Origin: Parvularculaceae bacterium
GTDB lineage: Bacteria; Pseudomonadota; Alphaproteobacteria; Caulobacterales; Parvularculaceae
Length of the DNA: 64,000 nucleotides
Assembly: GCA_021776475.1 (NCBI GenBank)
Contig: JAJFFV010000004.1
Location: 437-64,436, forward strand
Direction of reading: 5' to 3'
Shown here piece by piece: positions 368 through 6,550 of this stretch. The position numbers were made by a program, and so were the translations under genes. The notes beneath the pieces are model-generated. The model was not told the origin of the DNA and searched no databases. It was given only the letters and a program-made list of their open reading frames with translations. Every line of letters starts with the position of its first letter. Position 1 is the stretch's first letter.

Positions 368-1129
368 TTAAGCGGCGTCTTCAATGAACTCATTCAGCTC
401 CTGTGACGTTTTCAGGAATAAGCGTGATATGCCGATTTTCAAATACATGTCAGAGAGAGCCAAATTGAGATCGGGTTTTAGATTCGCCGCAGACAATTCC
501 GCCACGGCTCGCTCTATCTGGTCCGCTGTTAGATCTGGCTGGCAGGTCTCCGTCCGCGAGACAGAATTCTCAAGGATGTTTATCTGTACCGGGCATTTGG
601 TGCGTATACGGTTTTCAACATCATGAGGCATGACGCTCCGCAGGCGGCTACGATAAGCAGGCACTTGTAACAGATTTATATCCTGGGTCTCTAGAAAAAA
701 GTAATATCTGGCCAGACTTTGCCGGATCTCCTCATCGATGAGCGCTTTCGACGGCCCCAGCGCCAAGAGATCATCATAGGCGTCGCGACGAAGTGTGATG
801 GGCACGTAACCACTGGCCTGATATGCATCGACCAAAAACTGTTCGCCCCATTCTTCCACCGGGCGCTCCAGCCCATCAAGTGTGGCCAATGCGTGTGCTC
901 TGTACGTCCCATAAGCATCAATCCAGATTCGTAACATCTCTTGATTGCTCGACAGTTCGGCCTGAACACTCTCAACAGCTTTTTGAGCTGTCCTTTTATT
1001 CGCCTGGGTTGCATTCCAGTTAGCAACCTGAATACCAAGGAACACACCAATAACGACGATAAAGAAGTCGATCCCAACGGCGGTCCAGTTCTGCGCTTTT
1101 ATGTGTTCTGTGACGCGTCGCAGCAGCAT
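368..1129 (-). CDS. hypothetical single-pass membrane protein
   Basis: Part of ORF 368..1294. The internal ATG at 1129 lies 5 nt after a GGGGGG SD-like run. It gives the N-terminus MLLRRVTEHIKAQNW plus one TM helix (AVGIDFFIVVIGVFLGIQVANW). No catalytic motif recognised. Confidence 0.5.
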   Translation of the reverse strand: MLLRRVTEHIKAQNWTAVGIDFFIVVIGVFLGIQVANWNATQANKRTAQKAVESVQAELSSNQEMLRIWIDAYGTYRAHALATLDGLERPVEEWGEQFLVDAYQASGYVPITLRRDAYDDLLALGPSKALIDEEIRQSLARYYFFLETQDINLLQVPAYRSRLRSVMPHDVENRIRTKCPVQINILENSVSRTETCQPDLTADQIERAVAELSAANLKPDLNLALSDMYLKIGISRLFLKTSQELNEFIEDAA

Positions 1130-1181
1130 AATTACCCCCCATGTTATCACTGTTGTGCATATAGGTATATTCGAATGGATT

Positions 1182-1662
1182 TTATAGAGCCAACCAAAAA
1201 GCCAGTTGATCTTTACCTTGAACCCGTGACCCGTATCTACCTGTAGGGTTTTTGACAGAATAAACCTGGCTGAGTAGAACCTCATGGTTGGCATTTCGGC
1301 AGGGGAAAAGGCTATGCTGCGCCCTGGAAATACCCTGCCACTGTTGATCCAACTTGGCTTTTTTGAGCGCTTCTAGCAATTCTGATGGAAACCGAGGCAC
1401 GGCGTATGCCGTACACGTTATTTTGTCTCCTTCGCGTAAGTCAGCTTTTCCACTGTGGATGAATTCGGTAAACCACCTGCCGTCTCCCCGCGGCTTGATG
1501 CTGCGCCGCCCGATATTGAGGCTGAGTGTTATCCCAACGATGAAAGTTTCGGTTCCCAAACGCCTCGATGACTTCACCTGGCACAATGCAGTGCAAGCCA
1601 CCGCCCGGATGACAACATTCAGTGACCGATTCAAACGTAATTTCTGTACCGCTTGCTGTCAT
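1182..1662 (-). pseudogene. frameshifted hypothetical Cys-containing protein, translationally coupled to the GDCCVxC gene
   Basis: The ATG at 1662 overlaps the TGA of the upstream gene (TGATG). Frame A (MTASGTEITFESVTECCHPGGGLHCIVPGEVIEAFG) stops looking like protein after about 40 codons. A +1 frame (TETFIVGITLSLNIGRRSIKPRGDGRWFTEFIHSGKADLREGDKITCTAY...) stays protein-like down to the stop at 1182. The likely junction is at coding-strand TTTGGGAACC (1551..1560). Confidence 0.35.
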
Positions 1663-1886
1663 CAGCCGCAGCAATCATCTCCCAATTGGATCGGCGGACA
1701 TTTGATGTCGCCATAGGAGCAGTAAACGCAGCAATCGCCTTTCTTGGGGCGCAGAACCACGCCGCAGCCTTTGCAGTCATAGAAGAACTGGCAGGCATCG
1801 GTCGGCATTTCGTCCATAGATTGATGGCCGCATTTCGGGCAAGTCAGTGTCGAATGCGTCTCAAAGTTCAAAGCTGTTTTGCTCAC
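1662..1886 (-). CDS. GDCCVxC-domain Cys-rich small protein (zinc-ribbon-like)
   Basis: 74 aa with CPKCG, CKGCG and the literal KKGDCCVYCSYGD string, ending DDCCG. 13 Cys in total. Confidence 0.8.
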   Translation of the reverse strand: MSKTALNFETHSTLTCPKCGHQSMDEMPTDACQFFYDCKGCGVVLRPKKGDCCVYCSYGDIKCPPIQLGDDCCG

Positions 1887-1895
1887 CGAAACTCC

Positions 1896-2291
1896 TTAGC
1901 TCTTTGCCGGATTGGCGTACGTGCCCCAAAGCCATTCCAAGACAAATGTCAGGGCGACCAGAGCGATTGTCGTATAGCTCAAATGCATCACCCTGATGAG
2001 GCCTAAATCTATCAGATCAAACCCCAGGGCAAAGATCAAACTGCCTCCCAGCACCATGACGGGGCCGGCAAGGTAACAATGAAGCCGCCCGCAGCGCATG
2101 GCATTTATGATACAGCCCACGCCCATCCAGATATATGTGCCGGCCATGATGAGGACAATCGGGGCAACGGGCAGGAACTCTTCCAAAAAATTGACCGAAC
2201 ACAACAGAATAATTGGTATGCCCCATAAAAATGCGAATGGGAGCAGCCGGCGCGACAGGTCCTTTTGCCGTTGCGCTTCAGACATGTTCAA
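1896..2291 (-). CDS. 4-TM membrane protein with conserved MRCGRLHCYLAGP motif
   Basis: 131 aa with four hydrophobic helices. The Cys motif GCIINAMRCGRLHCYLAGP is shared with the next ORF upstream. Confidence 0.65.
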   Translation of the reverse strand: MNMSEAQRQKDLSRRLLPFAFLWGIPIILLCSVNFLEEFLPVAPIVLIMAGTYIWMGVGCIINAMRCGRLHCYLAGPVMVLGGSLIFALGFDLIDLGLIRVMHLSYTTIALVALTFVLEWLWGTYANPAKS

Positions 2292-2296
2292 CCTCC

Positions 2297-2681
2297 CTAA
2301 CCATCACTGTAACGCCCCCAAATCCATTCAGGGATAAAGGTCAAGCCCACCAGAATGCCTGCCCCCCACACAACATAGCTCAGTCCATAGGGGCCCAGAT
2401 TCACAATCTCGTAGGCGACTAATACGACGCCCAGCGCAGATGCCAGCAACACAGGCCCTGCCAGATAGCAATGGCGGCGTTTGCACCGTTGTGCATTGAT
2501 CAGGCAGCCAATGCCCATCCAGACAAGGGTGGCTGAAAGAATCAATCCCGTTGAACGGAATGATGCCACGGGCAAAATTCATCGAAAATAGAAGTATGAT
2601 CGGTATGCCCCAGCCAATCATGAAACCGATCGGCTTCTGAGACATATCGCGACCTTTTCCTGCCGTGTTCCGATCAGCCAT
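2297..2681 (-). pseudogene. tandem paralog of the 1896..2291 membrane protein, interrupted by a +1 frameshift
   Basis: Frame of ORF 2328..2708 gives FMIGWGIPIILLFSMNF (paralog: FLWGIPIILLCSVNF). Frame of ORF 2297..2575 gives LPVASFRSTGLILSATLVWMGIGCLINAQRCKRRHCYLAGP (paralog: LPVAPIVLIMAGTYIWMGVGCIINAMRCGRLHCYLAGP). The two frames join at a T4 run (plus-strand A4 at 2574..2577). Confidence 0.55.
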
Positions 2682-3291
2682 TTTCTGATCCTCCGGTCCT
2701 GACTTCAATCACCTTTGCGGCAAAGCGATCGGGATTCAGTTTGTTGTCGTCACCAAGACCGCGCAGTTGATGCTCCCAATGCACTGGCGCTGGCGGATTG
2801 CCTGCTGACCACTCAGCTGTGCCATCATAGATCAGCCAGACATCCCAGGCGTAAACCTGCAGATCGAGCGCCTGTTGAATGGCCAGACCGCTTGTCCCCT
2901 CCGGGTCCCAGTAATGGAGAATATCTTTACCTTCCATCAAACGCACAGCCCGAGCCGCATGCTTTTCTTCAGCGCCCAGCGTCGGCACATAGACAATGAA
3001 AGTCTTGAGATCGGGATTTTCCCGCGTCATGTCGCCAACCGCGTTGTTCATATCGGTCAAACCGCGAAGACACGGACCGCAGGAAGGTCCGGCCACAAAC
3101 ACCAGCCTTGTCGATCCTTTGGCCACATTGAAGTCAGAAATGAACTCACTAAGGGACGCATCCAGGACGGTGTAGTCCTGTTTGGCAGCAGAATTATCTG
3201 ACAACTCACTTGCCGCCTGCGGGTACAGAAACACGGCGCCTACGATTAATACCGCGCCTATCACCACAGGAATTATCAGCTTGCGTACCAT
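2674..3291 (-). CDS. membrane-anchored thioredoxin-fold thiol:disulfide oxidoreductase (CGPC)
   Basis: ATG at 3291 follows GGAGAATAAAA. N-terminal anchor LIIPVVIGAVLIVGAVFLYP. Active-site string FVAGPSCGPCLRG. Confidence 0.7.
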   Translation of the reverse strand: MVRKLIIPVVIGAVLIVGAVFLYPQAASELSDNSAAKQDYTVLDASLSEFISDFNVAKGSTRLVFVAGPSCGPCLRGLTDMNNAVGDMTRENPDLKTFIVYVPTLGAEEKHAARAVRLMEGKDILHYWDPEGTSGLAIQQALDLQVYAWDVWLIYDGTAEWSAGNPPAPVHWEHQLRGLGDDNKLNPDRFAAKVIEVRTGGSENG

Positions 3292-3293
3292 TT

Positions 3294-3665
3294 TTATTCT
3301 CCTAGCGCGAGTTGTTGAATGACCAGCCATTGCAGGCTGGGTGCCAGATAGGCCAGCAAAAGCAATCCGGCGCTAAACCAGAGGGCGAGTCTCAGGAGCG
3401 GTCTTTGGCGCCTTTCGCAAGCTCCGTCGGCGCACGCCGGCTGCGGGCGGTAGGCACGCCAGAAGGCCCAGGCCAGAAGAAGTGTCGCCACGGCTAAGAT
3501 AAGCGGCCTGAAGGGCTCCAGGCGGCTCAGGAAAATAGCGCCGCTTACTCCGAATAAGGTCACGGCCCAGGGACCAATGCAGCAAAAACCGATCGCTGCC
3601 GCTAGCCCGCTGATCCCTACTGCGCTGCTGGTTGCTGTTGTCTCTGACAGATTGTTGTTACTCAT
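3294..3665 (-). CDS. merT: MerT-like mercuric-ion transporter family protein
   Basis: CC pair in TM1 (GFCCIGPW). The segment LEPFRPLILAVATLLLAWAFWRAYRPQPACADGAC closely parallels Tn501 MerT (LEPYRPIFIGAALVALFFAWRRIYRPAQACKPGEVC, recalled from memory). Three TM helices. Confidence 0.7.
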   Translation of the reverse strand: MSNNNLSETTATSSAVGISGLAAAIGFCCIGPWAVTLFGVSGAIFLSRLEPFRPLILAVATLLLAWAFWRAYRPQPACADGACERRQRPLLRLALWFSAGLLLLAYLAPSLQWLVIQQLALGE

Positions 3666-3696
3666 GGGTGCCCTTGCGTCTCGACCATCTGGAGAA

Positions 3697-3727
3697 ATTC
3701 TACTATCTGTAGTAACTACAGATACAA
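3697..3727 (-). promoter_or_regulatory. MerR-type promoter: TTGTAT-N19-TAGAAT with a 7-1-7 dyad CTGTAGT-A-ACTACAG (3707..3721) in the spacer
   Basis: Read on the minus strand: -35 TTGTAT (3727..3722), a 19-nt spacer, and -10 TAGAAT (3702..3697). The perfect dyad lies inside the over-long spacer, between divergent merR (3771) and merT-like (3665). Confidence 0.6.
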
Positions 3728-3770
3728 GCTGAAACGTACATTAGATTCTAACAAATTAGTGAGGTCACCC

Positions 3771-4154
3771 ATGCAAATTGGTGAATTGTCCCGGGCAGCC
3801 AGGGTCAATATCGAAACCATCCGATATTACGAAAAGATCGGCCTTGTCCCCCAGCCGCCACGCAGCGATGGCGGGCGGCGCGAGTTTGACAACATCCATC
3901 TGAAGCGGCTGGTGTTTGTCCGCCGGGCGCGAGAGCTTGGCTTCAGTATTGAAGAAGTCAAACAACTGATCGCCTTGCAGGAAACACCGCCTGCCTGCCA
4001 AGACGTTTACACCCTCACCGAACATCACCTGGCAGATATCCGTCAGAAAATCCGCGACTTGAAAAAGATGGAACGGACCCTCACTGGGCTGGCAAAACAG
4101 TGCGAACAAGGCGCCGCGCCGGCCTGCCCAATTATCGAGGCCCTGAACAGATGA
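3771..4154 (+). CDS. merR: MerR-family metal-responsive regulator (three-Cys, Hg-MerR-like)
   Basis: MQIGELSRAARVNIETIRYYEKIGL HTH. GAGG lies 5 nt upstream of the ATG at 3771. Cys76/Cys111/Cys119 (numbered from 3771) have spacing 35/8, close to the 35/9 of MerR C82/C117/C126. Confidence 0.85.
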   Translation: MQIGELSRAARVNIETIRYYEKIGLVPQPPRSDGGRREFDNIHLKRLVFVRRARELGFSIEEVKQLIALQETPPACQDVYTLTEHHLADIRQKIRDLKKMERTLTGLAKQCEQGAAPACPIIEALNR

Positions 4155-4234
4155 TGACCCCTAACCTTCAAACGCACAATTTCAAAACTTTTATCTGGAC
4201 CATTTCTTTTAATCAGTCCTGGAACTTTTATCAC

Positions 4235-6550
4235 TCATAATTTCAAGCTGCGAAGCCGCAGCGCATTTGTAATAACTGACACTGAGGAGAGGCTCATTGC
4301 CGCGGCCGCAATCATCGGGCTTAGCAAAATGCCAAACGCGGGGTAAAGAATGCCGGCGGCAATTGGGACGCCAAGCGCATTATAGACAAAAGCAAAGAAC
4401 AAATTTTGACGGATATTATTCATTGTCGCACGGCTTAATATGCGCGCCTTCGCAAGATCGATCATGTCACCTCTAACCAGGGTTACACCTGCGCTTTCCA
4501 TGGCGACATCTGTGCCGCTTCCCATAGCAATCCCTACATTTGCTTGAGCGAGCGCCGGTGCATCATTGATACCGTCCCCCGCCATAGCCACAATGAAGCC
4601 ATCCGCCTGAAGCTTTCGAATGATCCGGTTTTTGTCTCCGGGGGAAACATCTGCATAGACGTCATTAATGCCGAGCCGGCGCGCTACAGATTGGGCAGTG
4701 GCATCACTATCACCGGTGAGCATTACTACTTTCAGCAATTCTCTATGTAACATTTTTATTGCTGCCGCAGATGTTGCCTTGATCGGATCGGCCACCCCAA
4801 TCAAGCCAGCAGGTTTTCCATCTATCGCAACAAACATGACGGTCTGGCCCTCCCATCGATATTCGTCTGCTTGCGTTGCAAGTGCTTCATCAAAAGCGCC
4901 AACGCGACGCATCATTTTACTGTTTCCGATTGCTACGGTGTGATTTTTTACCGTGCCCTGAGCGCCCTCACCCGTGACAGAATTAAACTCGTCAACATCT
5001 TCTATTGTGTAGCCGCGCTCTTCCGCACCCGAAACTATCGCTTCAGCGAGAGGGTGCTCACTCGCTTTTTCGACGGCGGCCACGTAACGTAGCACGGTCT
5101 GCTCATCAAACCCTGCTGCCGGCTTGTTGGTTACGAGTTTTGGTTTGCCCTCAGTCAACGTGCCCGTTTTATCGACTACGACAACATCAACCTTTTCAAA
5201 TATTTCCAATGCTTCTGCATTCTTAATCAAAATACCATTTTGCGCGCCTTTGCCTGTTCCGACCATTATGGACATCGGTGTGGCTAGGCCAAGAGCACAC
5301 GGACAGGCTATAATCAGCACAGCAACGGCGTTGACAATCGCAAATGCCACCGCCGGACTTGGGCCAAAAAGCACCCATATGATAAAGGTGAGTATAGATA
5401 TTATTACAACGGCGGGAACAAACCATCCTGCAACTGCATCGACGAGTTTTTGAATTGGTGCTCTGGAGCGTTGAGCTTCGGCAACCATGCGCACAATCTG
5501 CGACAGCATTGTATCGCCACCTACTCTCTCAGCAGTCACAATGAGTGCACCTGTGCCGTTTACGGTACCACCAATCACCTGGTCGCCAAGCTGCTTTTCC
5601 ACGGGTATTGGTTCTCCGGAGACCATAGATTCATCAACGCTGCTATGACCTTCAAACACGGCGCCATCGACTGGAATTTTTTCACCTGGGCGAACCCGCA
5701 ATTTATCGCCAATCTCGACGTGATCGAGATCGACTTCGTCTTCCGAACCATCTTCGTTCATTCGTATGGCAGTCGGGGGTGCCAATTCCAGCAAAGCCCG
5801 TATTGCACCCGAGGTTTGGCTTCGCGCGCGTAGTTCGAGAACCTGACCGAGAAGAACCAACGTTACAATGACGGCCGCAGCTTCAAAATAGACAGAAACT
5901 TGACCATCAGTATTTCGGAAACTCTGCGGAAAAATATCCGGCAGCAGTACTGCCACGAGTGAATAAACAAAAGCTACACCGACACCAAGAGCAATCAGCG
6001 TAAACATATTGAGATTTCGTGACGTCAAAGATTGCCATCCACGAACAAAAAACGGCCAACCTCCCCACAGAACAACTGGCGTCGCTAAAAGGATTTGCAA
6101 CCACTGTTGCCAAGCTGGTGGCGCGATGTTTTCGAGTGGGCGGCCAGGAATCAAATCGCTCATGGCGTAAACAAAGAGCGGCAAGCTGAGCATTGCCGAT
6201 ATCCAAAAGCGGCGAGTCATATCATCCAGTTCAGACGTATCCTCGTCCTGGTCCAGCCTGACCGTTTCGGGTTCGAGCGCCATACCGCAAATCGGGCAAC
6301 CGCTGTTTCTAACATCTCTAACCTGGGGATGCATCGGACACGTGTAAATTACCCCATTAAACCCCTTGGGTACGTGGTCGTAATTATTGTCATTCACAAC
6401 AGGTGCGGATGAGTTGTGACTATCCGAATGGCCTTTTCCGTGACCTTGATACATTCGTGATCCAGAACTGCCTTTTTCCTTGCAGCAGTCTTGATCGTGC
6501 ACGGCTGTCGTATCACTTTTTTGGCCCAGTTTTGCGTGTGCCTTGATCAT
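4235..6550 (-). CDS. copA: Cu(I)/Ag(I)-translocating P1B-type ATPase
   Basis: 771 aa. CPC motif ([11 protein letters not shown]), DKTGTLT phosphorylation site, GDGINDAP hinge. His-rich N-terminus plus a [22 protein letters not shown] metal-binding module. Confidence 0.9.

Follow-up and report, generated by a model that had tools for sequence, protein, structure and literature searches.

The described systems closest to the locus reported here are the mercury resistance (mer) operons of Tn21 and Tn501, which have the layout merR / merT merP (merC/F) merA (merB) merD merE, and the merR / merT-merP-GDCCVxC unit of Tn5563 and Tn5563a, which is found on pRA2 and IncP-6 plasmids. This study concerns a MerR-controlled, mer-like operon at positions 1182 to 4154 of a 64,000-nucleotide stretch of DNA from a Parvularculaceae bacterium (GenBank assembly GCA_021776475.1), whose genome comprises 3.4 Mb in six contigs. 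The whole stretch, C4:437-64436, is called the window here. Like the Tn21 and Tn501 operons, the window unit has a divergent MerR with three cysteines, an over-long 19-nucleotide (19-nt) promoter spacer that holds a dyad, and a predicted MerT-like transporter with a Cys-Cys (CC) pair in its first transmembrane helix (TM1) and a cytoplasmic cysteine pair. However, it has no MerA, MerP, MerB, MerD or MerE in cis, an exported thioredoxin-fold protein stands in the place of MerP, and genes for four-transmembrane (4-TM) proteins and a GDCCVxC protein have been added. The Tn5563-type unit, whose merR / merT-merP-GDCCVxC arrangement was confirmed on an Enterobacter cloacae IncP plasmid, likewise lacks a reductase, has its transporter genes under MerR control and closes with a GDCCVxC gene. 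It differs in that it keeps MerP, has neither a thioredoxin-fold gene nor a 4-TM gene and lies on a Tn3-family transposon, and its GDCCVxC protein is about 58% identical to that of the window. The window unit does not belong to this type, as it has no MerP and no adjacent Tn3 transposase.

Other comparisons concern single parts of the unit or its logic. The nearest relative of the window MerR, of one of its 4-TM proteins and of its GDCCVxC protein is found in Parvularcula (CP132334.1, locus L010), where a merR / merT-4TM-GDCCVxC operon with an identical dyad lies in a heavy-metal island, but that operon has no thioredoxin-fold gene, a single 4-TM gene and a MerT subtype without the loop cysteine pair. 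MerF, MerC, MerE and MerH resemble the 4-TM proteins in being small cysteine-bearing inner-membrane proteins from mer operons. The vicinal cysteine pairs of MerF face the cytoplasm, as proposed below for the 4-TM motif, whereas the 4-TM family differs from these small mercury transporters in helix count and motif (C-x6-C-x4-C with His). A parallel in logic is offered by bioaccumulation strains engineered with MerT-MerP plus metallothionein (reviewed in PMC6215804), which import Hg(II) and trap it on a cysteine-rich cytoplasmic protein instead of reducing it. Those strains are artificial, whereas the pairing in the window is natural and conserved, and its cysteine-rich partner is an unrelated, ordered domain of 74 amino acids.

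The data presented here suggest that the window unit is probably an Hg(II)-inducible accessory mercury-handling operon under MerR control, built entirely as a cysteine relay. An earlier reading made from the sequence alone (the sequence-only reading) had offered a thiol relay or sequestration as one of two explanations for an uptake protein without a reductase; it is the better one. The MerA-less architecture is recurrent, mostly in genomes that have no MerA. From the promoter, the genes on the minus strand run in the order MerT-like protein, CGPC protein, 4TM-A, 4TM-B, GDCCVxC protein and a trailing open reading frame (ORF), and merR lies divergently on the plus strand. The features are as follows.

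3771 to 4154, plus strand: MerR-family metal-sensing activator, 127 amino acids from the ATG at 3771, with an alternative GTG start at 3759.
3697 to 3727, minus strand: MerR-type promoter/operator, read from the sequence, with -35 TTGTAT at 3722-3727, a 19-nt spacer and -10 TAGAAT at 3697-3702.
3294 to 3665, minus strand: predicted MerT-like inner-membrane Hg(II) transporter, 123 amino acids, with a CC pair at 28/29 in TM1 and a C78-x4-C83 loop pair.
2674 to 3294, minus strand: signal-anchored exported thioredoxin-fold protein, 205 amino acids, with a CGPC motif (Cys72/75).
2297 to 2695, minus strand: 4-TM paralog A (4TM-A), disrupted and split over two frames.
1896 to 2285, minus strand: 4-TM paralog B (4TM-B), an intact four-helix membrane protein of 129 amino acids.
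1662 to 1886, minus strand: GDCCVxC-domain protein, 74 amino acids, with 11 cysteines, a C-terminal CC-G tail and no signal peptide.
1182 to 1662, minus strand: doubtful trailing ORF or ORFs, comprising a 73-amino-acid ORF at 1441-1662, whose ATG overlaps the stop codon of the GDCCVxC gene (TGATG), and a second frame that runs to 1182.

The operator ties the window unit to the mercury operon of the same genome. Direct reading bore out the TTGTAT-N19-TAGAAT promoter with a perfect 7-1-7 dyad that had been described earlier, and the dyad, CTGTAGT-T-ACTACAG (CTGTAGTTACTACAG), occupies positions 3707-3721, within the spacer. The operator dyad of Tn501 is TCCGTAC-N4-GTACGGA, as opposed to CTGTAG-N3-CTACAG here. 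Five exact copies of CTGTAG-N3-CTACAG are present in the 3.4-Mb genome, whereas about 0.2 would be expected by chance. The window holds one copy and the mer island on contig C6 the other four (at 870393, 870985, 871642 and 876002), and all five lie in promoters with 19-nt spacers in mer contexts. Because the exact dyad is confined to these two places, the window unit falls in the same operator regulon as the bona fide mercury operon of this genome. The same dyad was also found between merR and the merT or transporter genes in 24 related loci, both with and without merA, and the MerA-containing operons among them are L022, L027-29, L040 and L052.

The regulator gives a similar picture. Its three cysteines, Cys76, Cys111 and Cys119, have the MerR-like spacing of 35/8 that had been read from the sequence, and they align with the three cysteines of regulators from MerA-linked operons; the C-x7-C loop (spacing 8) is common to the window regulator and the MerA-linked regulators of L022 and L027-29. 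The protein matches Pfam MerR, MerR_1 and MerR-DNA-bind. Its best NCBIfam match, and the top one among the metal-sensing MerR models, is MerR TIGR02051 at 130.8 bits, below the cut-off of 150.85, with CueR at 117 bits and CadR/PbrR at 109 bits. The MerR encoded beside merTPFAB on C6 scores lower still for TIGR02051 (120.8 bits), which indicates that the cut-off excludes this whole alphaproteobacterial clade. In the regulator tree, the window protein falls in a clade of 22 with support of 99/95, within which regulators of MerA-linked and MerA-less operons interleave. As the same dyad and the same regulator clade serve MerA-containing and MerA-less alphaproteobacterial operons, these data argue that Hg(II) is the inducing metal.

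No reductase, lyase or MerP is encoded in cis, as the sequence-only reading had noted for the window. Whole-genome searches with tblastn and hidden Markov models (HMMs) matched MerA, MerP, MerF and MerB solely on C6 and found none of them on contig C4. A merA gene just beyond the window in the same transcription unit would have spoken against a reductase-less unit, but the 436 bp before the window hold only a tRNA-Met gene. However, the statement that there is no visible reductase partner applies to the window only. The sole MerA of the genome above the model cut-off is encoded at C6:872689-874074 (537.6 bits, cut-off 454), in a canonical merR / merT-merP-merF-merA-merB cluster that is governed by the same dyad. 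Directly downstream of the C6 merR, in the same island (L009, C6:865000-882000), lies a paralogous unit of MerT-like, thioredoxin-fold, intact 4TM-A and 4TM-B genes. Of the four C6 dyads, two precede merT and the paralogous MerT-like gene, respectively, one adjoins merR and one precedes a small exported cysteine-rich ORF. Dyads in this island also precede a 164-amino-acid ORF between merR and merT (L009 6098-6592), and the exported cysteine-rich ORF is 125 amino acids long (L009 10625-11002). Both ORFs may be further members of the mercury regulon.

The first two genes of the window operon encode the predicted import step. The MerT-like protein matches Pfam MerT at 52.4 bits, above the gathering score of 32.9, which supports the original assignment as a MerT-like importer; its score for the NCBIfam MerT equivalog is 48.6 bits, below the cut-off of 150. 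In alignments with canonical MerT both cysteine pairs are kept. The second protein had been described as a membrane-anchored CGPC thioredoxin-fold protein. No Pfam or NCBIfam model (including Redoxin, AhpC-TSA and Thioredoxin) matched it even at E≤1, and a profile search of PDB sequences with its family returned nothing significant, but the structural data support the fold. The AlphaFold2 (AF2) model, built with 21 homologues, has a predicted local distance difference test (pLDDT) score of 85.9 and shows a thioredoxin fold in which helix 1 begins with the CxxC (strand 61-67, helix from residue 72; the cysteines are numbered 71/74 in the model). Its Foldseek neighbours in the PDB are CcmG, ResA, Etrx, DsbE and Sco (E about 1e-4, target TM-score (TMt) about 0.6), together with TlpA-like proteins and the C-terminal domain of DipZ. 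Homologues of this protein bear signal peptides or lipoboxes, and their CxxC is invariant. Among 32 loci with MerT, the thioredoxin-fold gene (7 loci) and MerP (18 loci) were never found together (p=0.001; this and the other co-occurrence p-values are indicative only, because the loci are phylogenetically non-independent). The gene is mostly paired with the MerT-like subtype (5/7 loci), and it was also found in one MerA+MerB operon, L035. Since the fold is confirmed, the homologues are exported and the gene never accompanies MerP in the 32 MerT loci, we propose that the thioredoxin-fold protein substitutes for MerP and partners the MerT-like protein in the periplasm.

The next two genes belong to a 4-TM family for which no Pfam or NCBIfam model was matched, and the MerF, MerC and MerE models gave nothing at E≤0.01. 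A profile search of 1.84 billion representative proteins found 655 clusters at E≤1e-3 and 229 at E≤1e-10. The invariant motif of the family is C-x2-NA-x2-C-x-R-x-HC-x3-(G/A)P, with a Glu and a Tyr near the C-terminus, and in 4TM-B it reads C58-x2-NA-x2-C65-x-R-x-H-C70, plus E117 and Y123. In the AF2 model of 4TM-B (pLDDT 94.2), four helices form a bundle and the three cysteines lie around the turn between helices 2 and 3. Foldseek found no structural relative of this model in the PDB, where the best match (E 0.86) and the others were generic four-helix bundles. Natural fusions join the family to metal-handling domains. One protein of 522 amino acids (P0057) combines zf_CopZ, BFD-like, 4-TM, MerT and HMA domains, and another of 382 amino acids (P0152) combines a 4-TM domain with two HMA domains. 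The positive-inside rule and the topology of the fusions place the helix 2-3 turn, with its Cys3/His motif, in the cytoplasm. N-terminally extended 4-TM proteins were also considered as possible fusions with GDCCVxC domains; this was unsupported in the sample, as the extensions mostly resemble mis-called starts.

The window had been read as containing two tandem 4-TM paralogs. Paralog B is intact, but paralog A is broken: its N-terminal part lies in the frame of the ORF at 2328-2708 and its C-terminal part, with RCKRRHCYLAGP, in the frame of the ORF at 2297-2575, and relative to the intact C6 paralog (L009 3987-4373) a 5-bp deletion near window position 2543 shifts the frame. A sequencing error was rejected as the explanation. 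The change is a 5-bp deletion rather than homopolymer slippage, and over positions 1100-4300 the window is identical to an independent Logan contig (43 kb, depth 15) from the source run, X1.

The GDCCVxC protein matches NF041374 at 104.4 bits against a cut-off of 40, and its motif reads GDCCVYC. The family assignment of the sequence-only reading therefore stood, but not the count of 13 cysteines, as the protein has 11. All 11 are kept in most of 19 aligned related sequences, and the C-terminal Cys-Cys tail resembles that of MerA. GDCCVxC genes are present on 353 plasmids, among them IncP plasmids with the Tn5563-type unit. A literature search for "GDCCVxC" found no paper in the library searched. 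In two loci (L102 96-1685 and L119 1713-3170) the GDCCVxC gene adjoins MerA-like flavoprotein ORFs that score low against the C6 MerA (183-219 bits); these may be short MerA-type reductases that fall under the cut-off. Two matches to the GDCCVxC model contain in-frame TGA codons (G171:C160:1833-2003 and G352:C130:741-893) and could be selenocysteine forms or pseudogenes; the NCBIfam name of the family includes "(seleno)protein".

To place the unit among its relatives, 80 loci from other species genomes were gathered via the 4-TM family and their neighbours were scored against the window and C6 proteins. Within 6 kb of the 4-TM gene there was a MerR-family regulator in 45 loci, MerT in 32, MerP in 20, GDCCVxC in 18, MerA in 14, MerF in 8 and the thioredoxin-fold gene in 8. 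Two architectures dominate, merR / merT-merP-(merF)-merA-4TM and merR / merT-(merP/merF)-GDCCVxC-4TM. MerA and GDCCVxC did not occur in cis in any of the 80 loci (one-sided Fisher p=0.019), and their exclusion among the 32 loci that have MerR plus MerT or MerF gave p=0.0006. Two loci from Terricaulis metagenome-assembled genomes show the exchange directly. L026 (4534-6233) and L027 (3129-6233) are collinear, with 80% nucleotide identity over merR-merT-merP and 75% over the 4-TM gene, and the same operon slot holds GDCCVxC (290 bp) in L026 and merA (1.7 kb) in L027, a natural cassette swap.

The MerA-less architecture is found mostly in genomes without any MerA. Only 2 of the 14 genomes that carry a MerA-less unit encode a MerA above the cut-off, leaving 12/14 without, and none was found in the complete Parvularcula genome or in the isolate Parasphingopyxis lamellibrachiae DSM 26725. 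Among 401 species genomes drawn evenly from the Alphaproteobacteria, GDCCVxC was present in 68 (17%), MerA in 37 (9%) and both in 11, so that 57/68 GDCCVxC-positive genomes (84%) had no MerA.

Sequence comparison with the two closest loci gives the window operon the look of a mosaic. Its MerR, 4TM-B and GDCCVxC proteins are of the Parvularcula (L010) type, at 85-89% identity (87%, 85% and 89%, respectively), whereas its MerT-like, thioredoxin-fold and 4TM-A proteins are closest to the C6 copy (76/67/67%); 4TM-B is 58-60% identical to its C6 counterpart. With a mosaic origin, 4TM-A would be redundant, which could account for its decay. Against Parvularcula, the ratio of nonsynonymous to synonymous substitution rates (dN/dS) is 0.11 for MerR, 0.07 for 4TM-B and 0.09 for GDCCVxC at dS of 0.7-1.2, which indicates strong purifying selection on these three genes.

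On top of the gene content, operator regulon, folds, patterns of co-occurrence and exclusion and purifying selection observed here, we infer which metal is handled, in which direction it moves and how it is handed on at each step of the proposed relay. In the role of MerP, the signal-anchored thioredoxin-fold protein would bind periplasmic Hg(II) with its CGPC pair and pass it to the MerT-like protein, first to the CC pair in TM1 and then to the C-x4-C pair of the cytoplasmic loop. At the inner face of the membrane the metal would be received by the 4-TM protein, at the Cys3/His site, by the soluble 11-cysteine GDCCVxC protein, or by both. Here the relay probably ends with reduction in trans by the co-regulated C6 MerA. 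As the C6 merA operon is switched on through the same operator, the window copy would add to the capacity for uptake and hand-off. Most other hosts of GDCCVxC-type operons have no MerA, and there the GDCCVxC protein would likely be the end-point, as a buffer or sequestering protein. A more tentative extension of this model, which we hold as a possibility rather than as the expected outcome, is that GDCCVxC and the 4-TM protein, in some lineages with the thioredoxin-fold MerP surrogate, constitute a second, MerA-independent branch of mercury handling, in which the 11-cysteine protein replaces the reductase as terminal acceptor and which in Alphaproteobacteria is more widely spread than MerA.

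Several observations weigh against a mercury relay of this kind. Neither the regulator nor the MerT-like protein reaches its NCBIfam equivalog cut-off (MerR and MerT, respectively), one of the window's two 4-TM genes is a pseudogene, and the loci that show the exclusion patterns are phylogenetically non-independent. Short, divergent MerA-like reductases could escape the MerA cut-off, since some GDCCVxC genes lie beside low-scoring MerA-like flavoproteins. GDCCVxC genes were also found beside ACR3/ArsC-like genes and CDF cation transporters (L093, L109 and L124), so the domain is not mercury-specific. Hg(II) that is imported but not reduced would be expected to harm the cell, and the literature gives the Tn5563 locus as merR, merT and merP only and names it a "defective mer locus" (PMC4785139).

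Some of these points could be read as signs that the substrate is a metalloid or a soft metal other than mercury (Cd, Zn, Pb, Au, Ag, Cu(I) or As(III)) and that the regulator is not mercury-specific; the sequence-only reading had offered specificity for another soft metal as its other explanation. PbrR/CadR-type regulators also carry three cysteines, the CueR and CadR/PbrR models score near the MerR model, which itself stays below its cut-off, GDCCVxC genes keep company with ACR3/ArsC and CDF transporters, and the unit lies in a copper/heavy-metal island adjoining a CopA-like ATPase. However, the C6 MerR, which sits beside merA itself, scores lower for MerR than the window regulator does. The clade with 99/95 support mixes MerA-linked and MerA-less regulators, all with the same dyad, and this dyad drives merTPFAB in the same genome and MerA-containing operons in six other loci. 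Additionally, the MerT, MerP and MerF partners across the loci are families of mercury systems. These data disfavour specificity for another metal, to which we assign a small probability. A role in redox maintenance is likewise improbable, if by a hair less so. The thioredoxin-fold and 4-TM proteins would then work in the manner of CcdA/DsbD with a TlpA-like partner, keeping transporter thiols reduced or repairing periplasmic thiols damaged by mercury. CGPC is the classical reducing thioredoxin motif, most structural neighbours of the thioredoxin-fold protein named above (CcmG, ResA, TlpA-like proteins and the C-terminal domain of DipZ) are reducing thiol-disulfide oxidoreductases, and the gene adjoins one for a membrane protein with conserved cysteines. 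Nevertheless, Sco, a metal-binding thioredoxin fold, is among the same structural matches, and the strict exclusion between the thioredoxin-fold gene and MerP points to the same job as MerP. The 4-TM gene also occurs without a thioredoxin-fold gene in 72/80 loci. Unlike in CcdA/DsbD, its three conserved cysteines lie at or near the cytoplasmic face and none is periplasmic, and a CcdA/DsbD-like role of the 4-TM proteins is judged unlikely on account of these positions.

The unit could also be a decaying duplicate without function, a "defective mer locus" on a genomic island, with the functional operon kept on C6. The 5-bp frameshifting deletion in 4TM-A is real, the trailing ORF is broken and has no homologue that was found, and there is no reductase in cis, as in the merR-merT-merP unit of Tn5563 that was called defective (PMC4785139). 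However, five genes and the promoter are intact, the dN/dS values of 0.07-0.11 are those of genes under selection, and the lost 4TM-A is redundant with an intact 4TM-B. MerA-less operons of the GDCCVxC type were found in at least 18 loci of different lineages as well as on plasmids, and the gene family occurs in 17% of the alphaproteobacterial species genomes, mostly without MerA. Decay is therefore the explanation we consider least probable, and an accessory mercury relay under MerR control remains the preferred reading.

The trailing ORF had been counted as a last operon gene on account of its TGATG overlap, but this was unsupported. The region is spread over two frames, and no Pfam match was obtained. 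No homologue was found in 60 genomes of the same order or beside the 80 related loci, and a search of a collection of 5.8 billion proteins found none among candidates of about 87-278 amino acids (the query was merged, and this range excludes homologues of 73 amino acids). The trailing ORF probably lies outside the conserved part of the unit. Its end is overlapped by a 308-amino-acid ORF on the minus strand (368-1294) with an N-terminal membrane segment, a weak match to DUF6090 (E 0.02) and no clear family. On the other side, a CopA-like P1B-type ATPase of 771 amino acids with an N-terminal cysteine-rich HMBD domain (PF19335) is encoded at 4235-6550 on the minus strand and begins a copper/heavy-metal island. 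Membership of this gene in the MerR unit was considered and not adopted, as it is convergent with merR. The tRNA-Met gene (C4:292-368) lies directly before the window start, and from this position the metal-resistance region may be a tRNA-associated genomic island; a repeat of the tRNA-Met 3' end (16-20 nt) was sought elsewhere on C4 and none was found.

Mercury resistance is taught as transport plus reduction, and reductase-less mer units have been dismissed as defective. In the genome described here, a classical merTPFAB operon shares its MerR operator with a unit that is read as a reductase-less cysteine relay. The comparative data suggest that three unstudied families, the GDCCVxC proteins, the 4-TM proteins with the Cys3/His motif and the exported thioredoxin-fold proteins, are regular parts of mercury-type operons, and one operon slot appears to take either GDCCVxC or MerA. 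Should units of the GDCCVxC type protect cells or accumulate Hg without volatilising it, estimates of microbial mercury cycling that are based on merA counts would change, as would the way in which "defective mer loci" of clinical plasmids are interpreted and the set of natural parts for mercury bioaccumulation.

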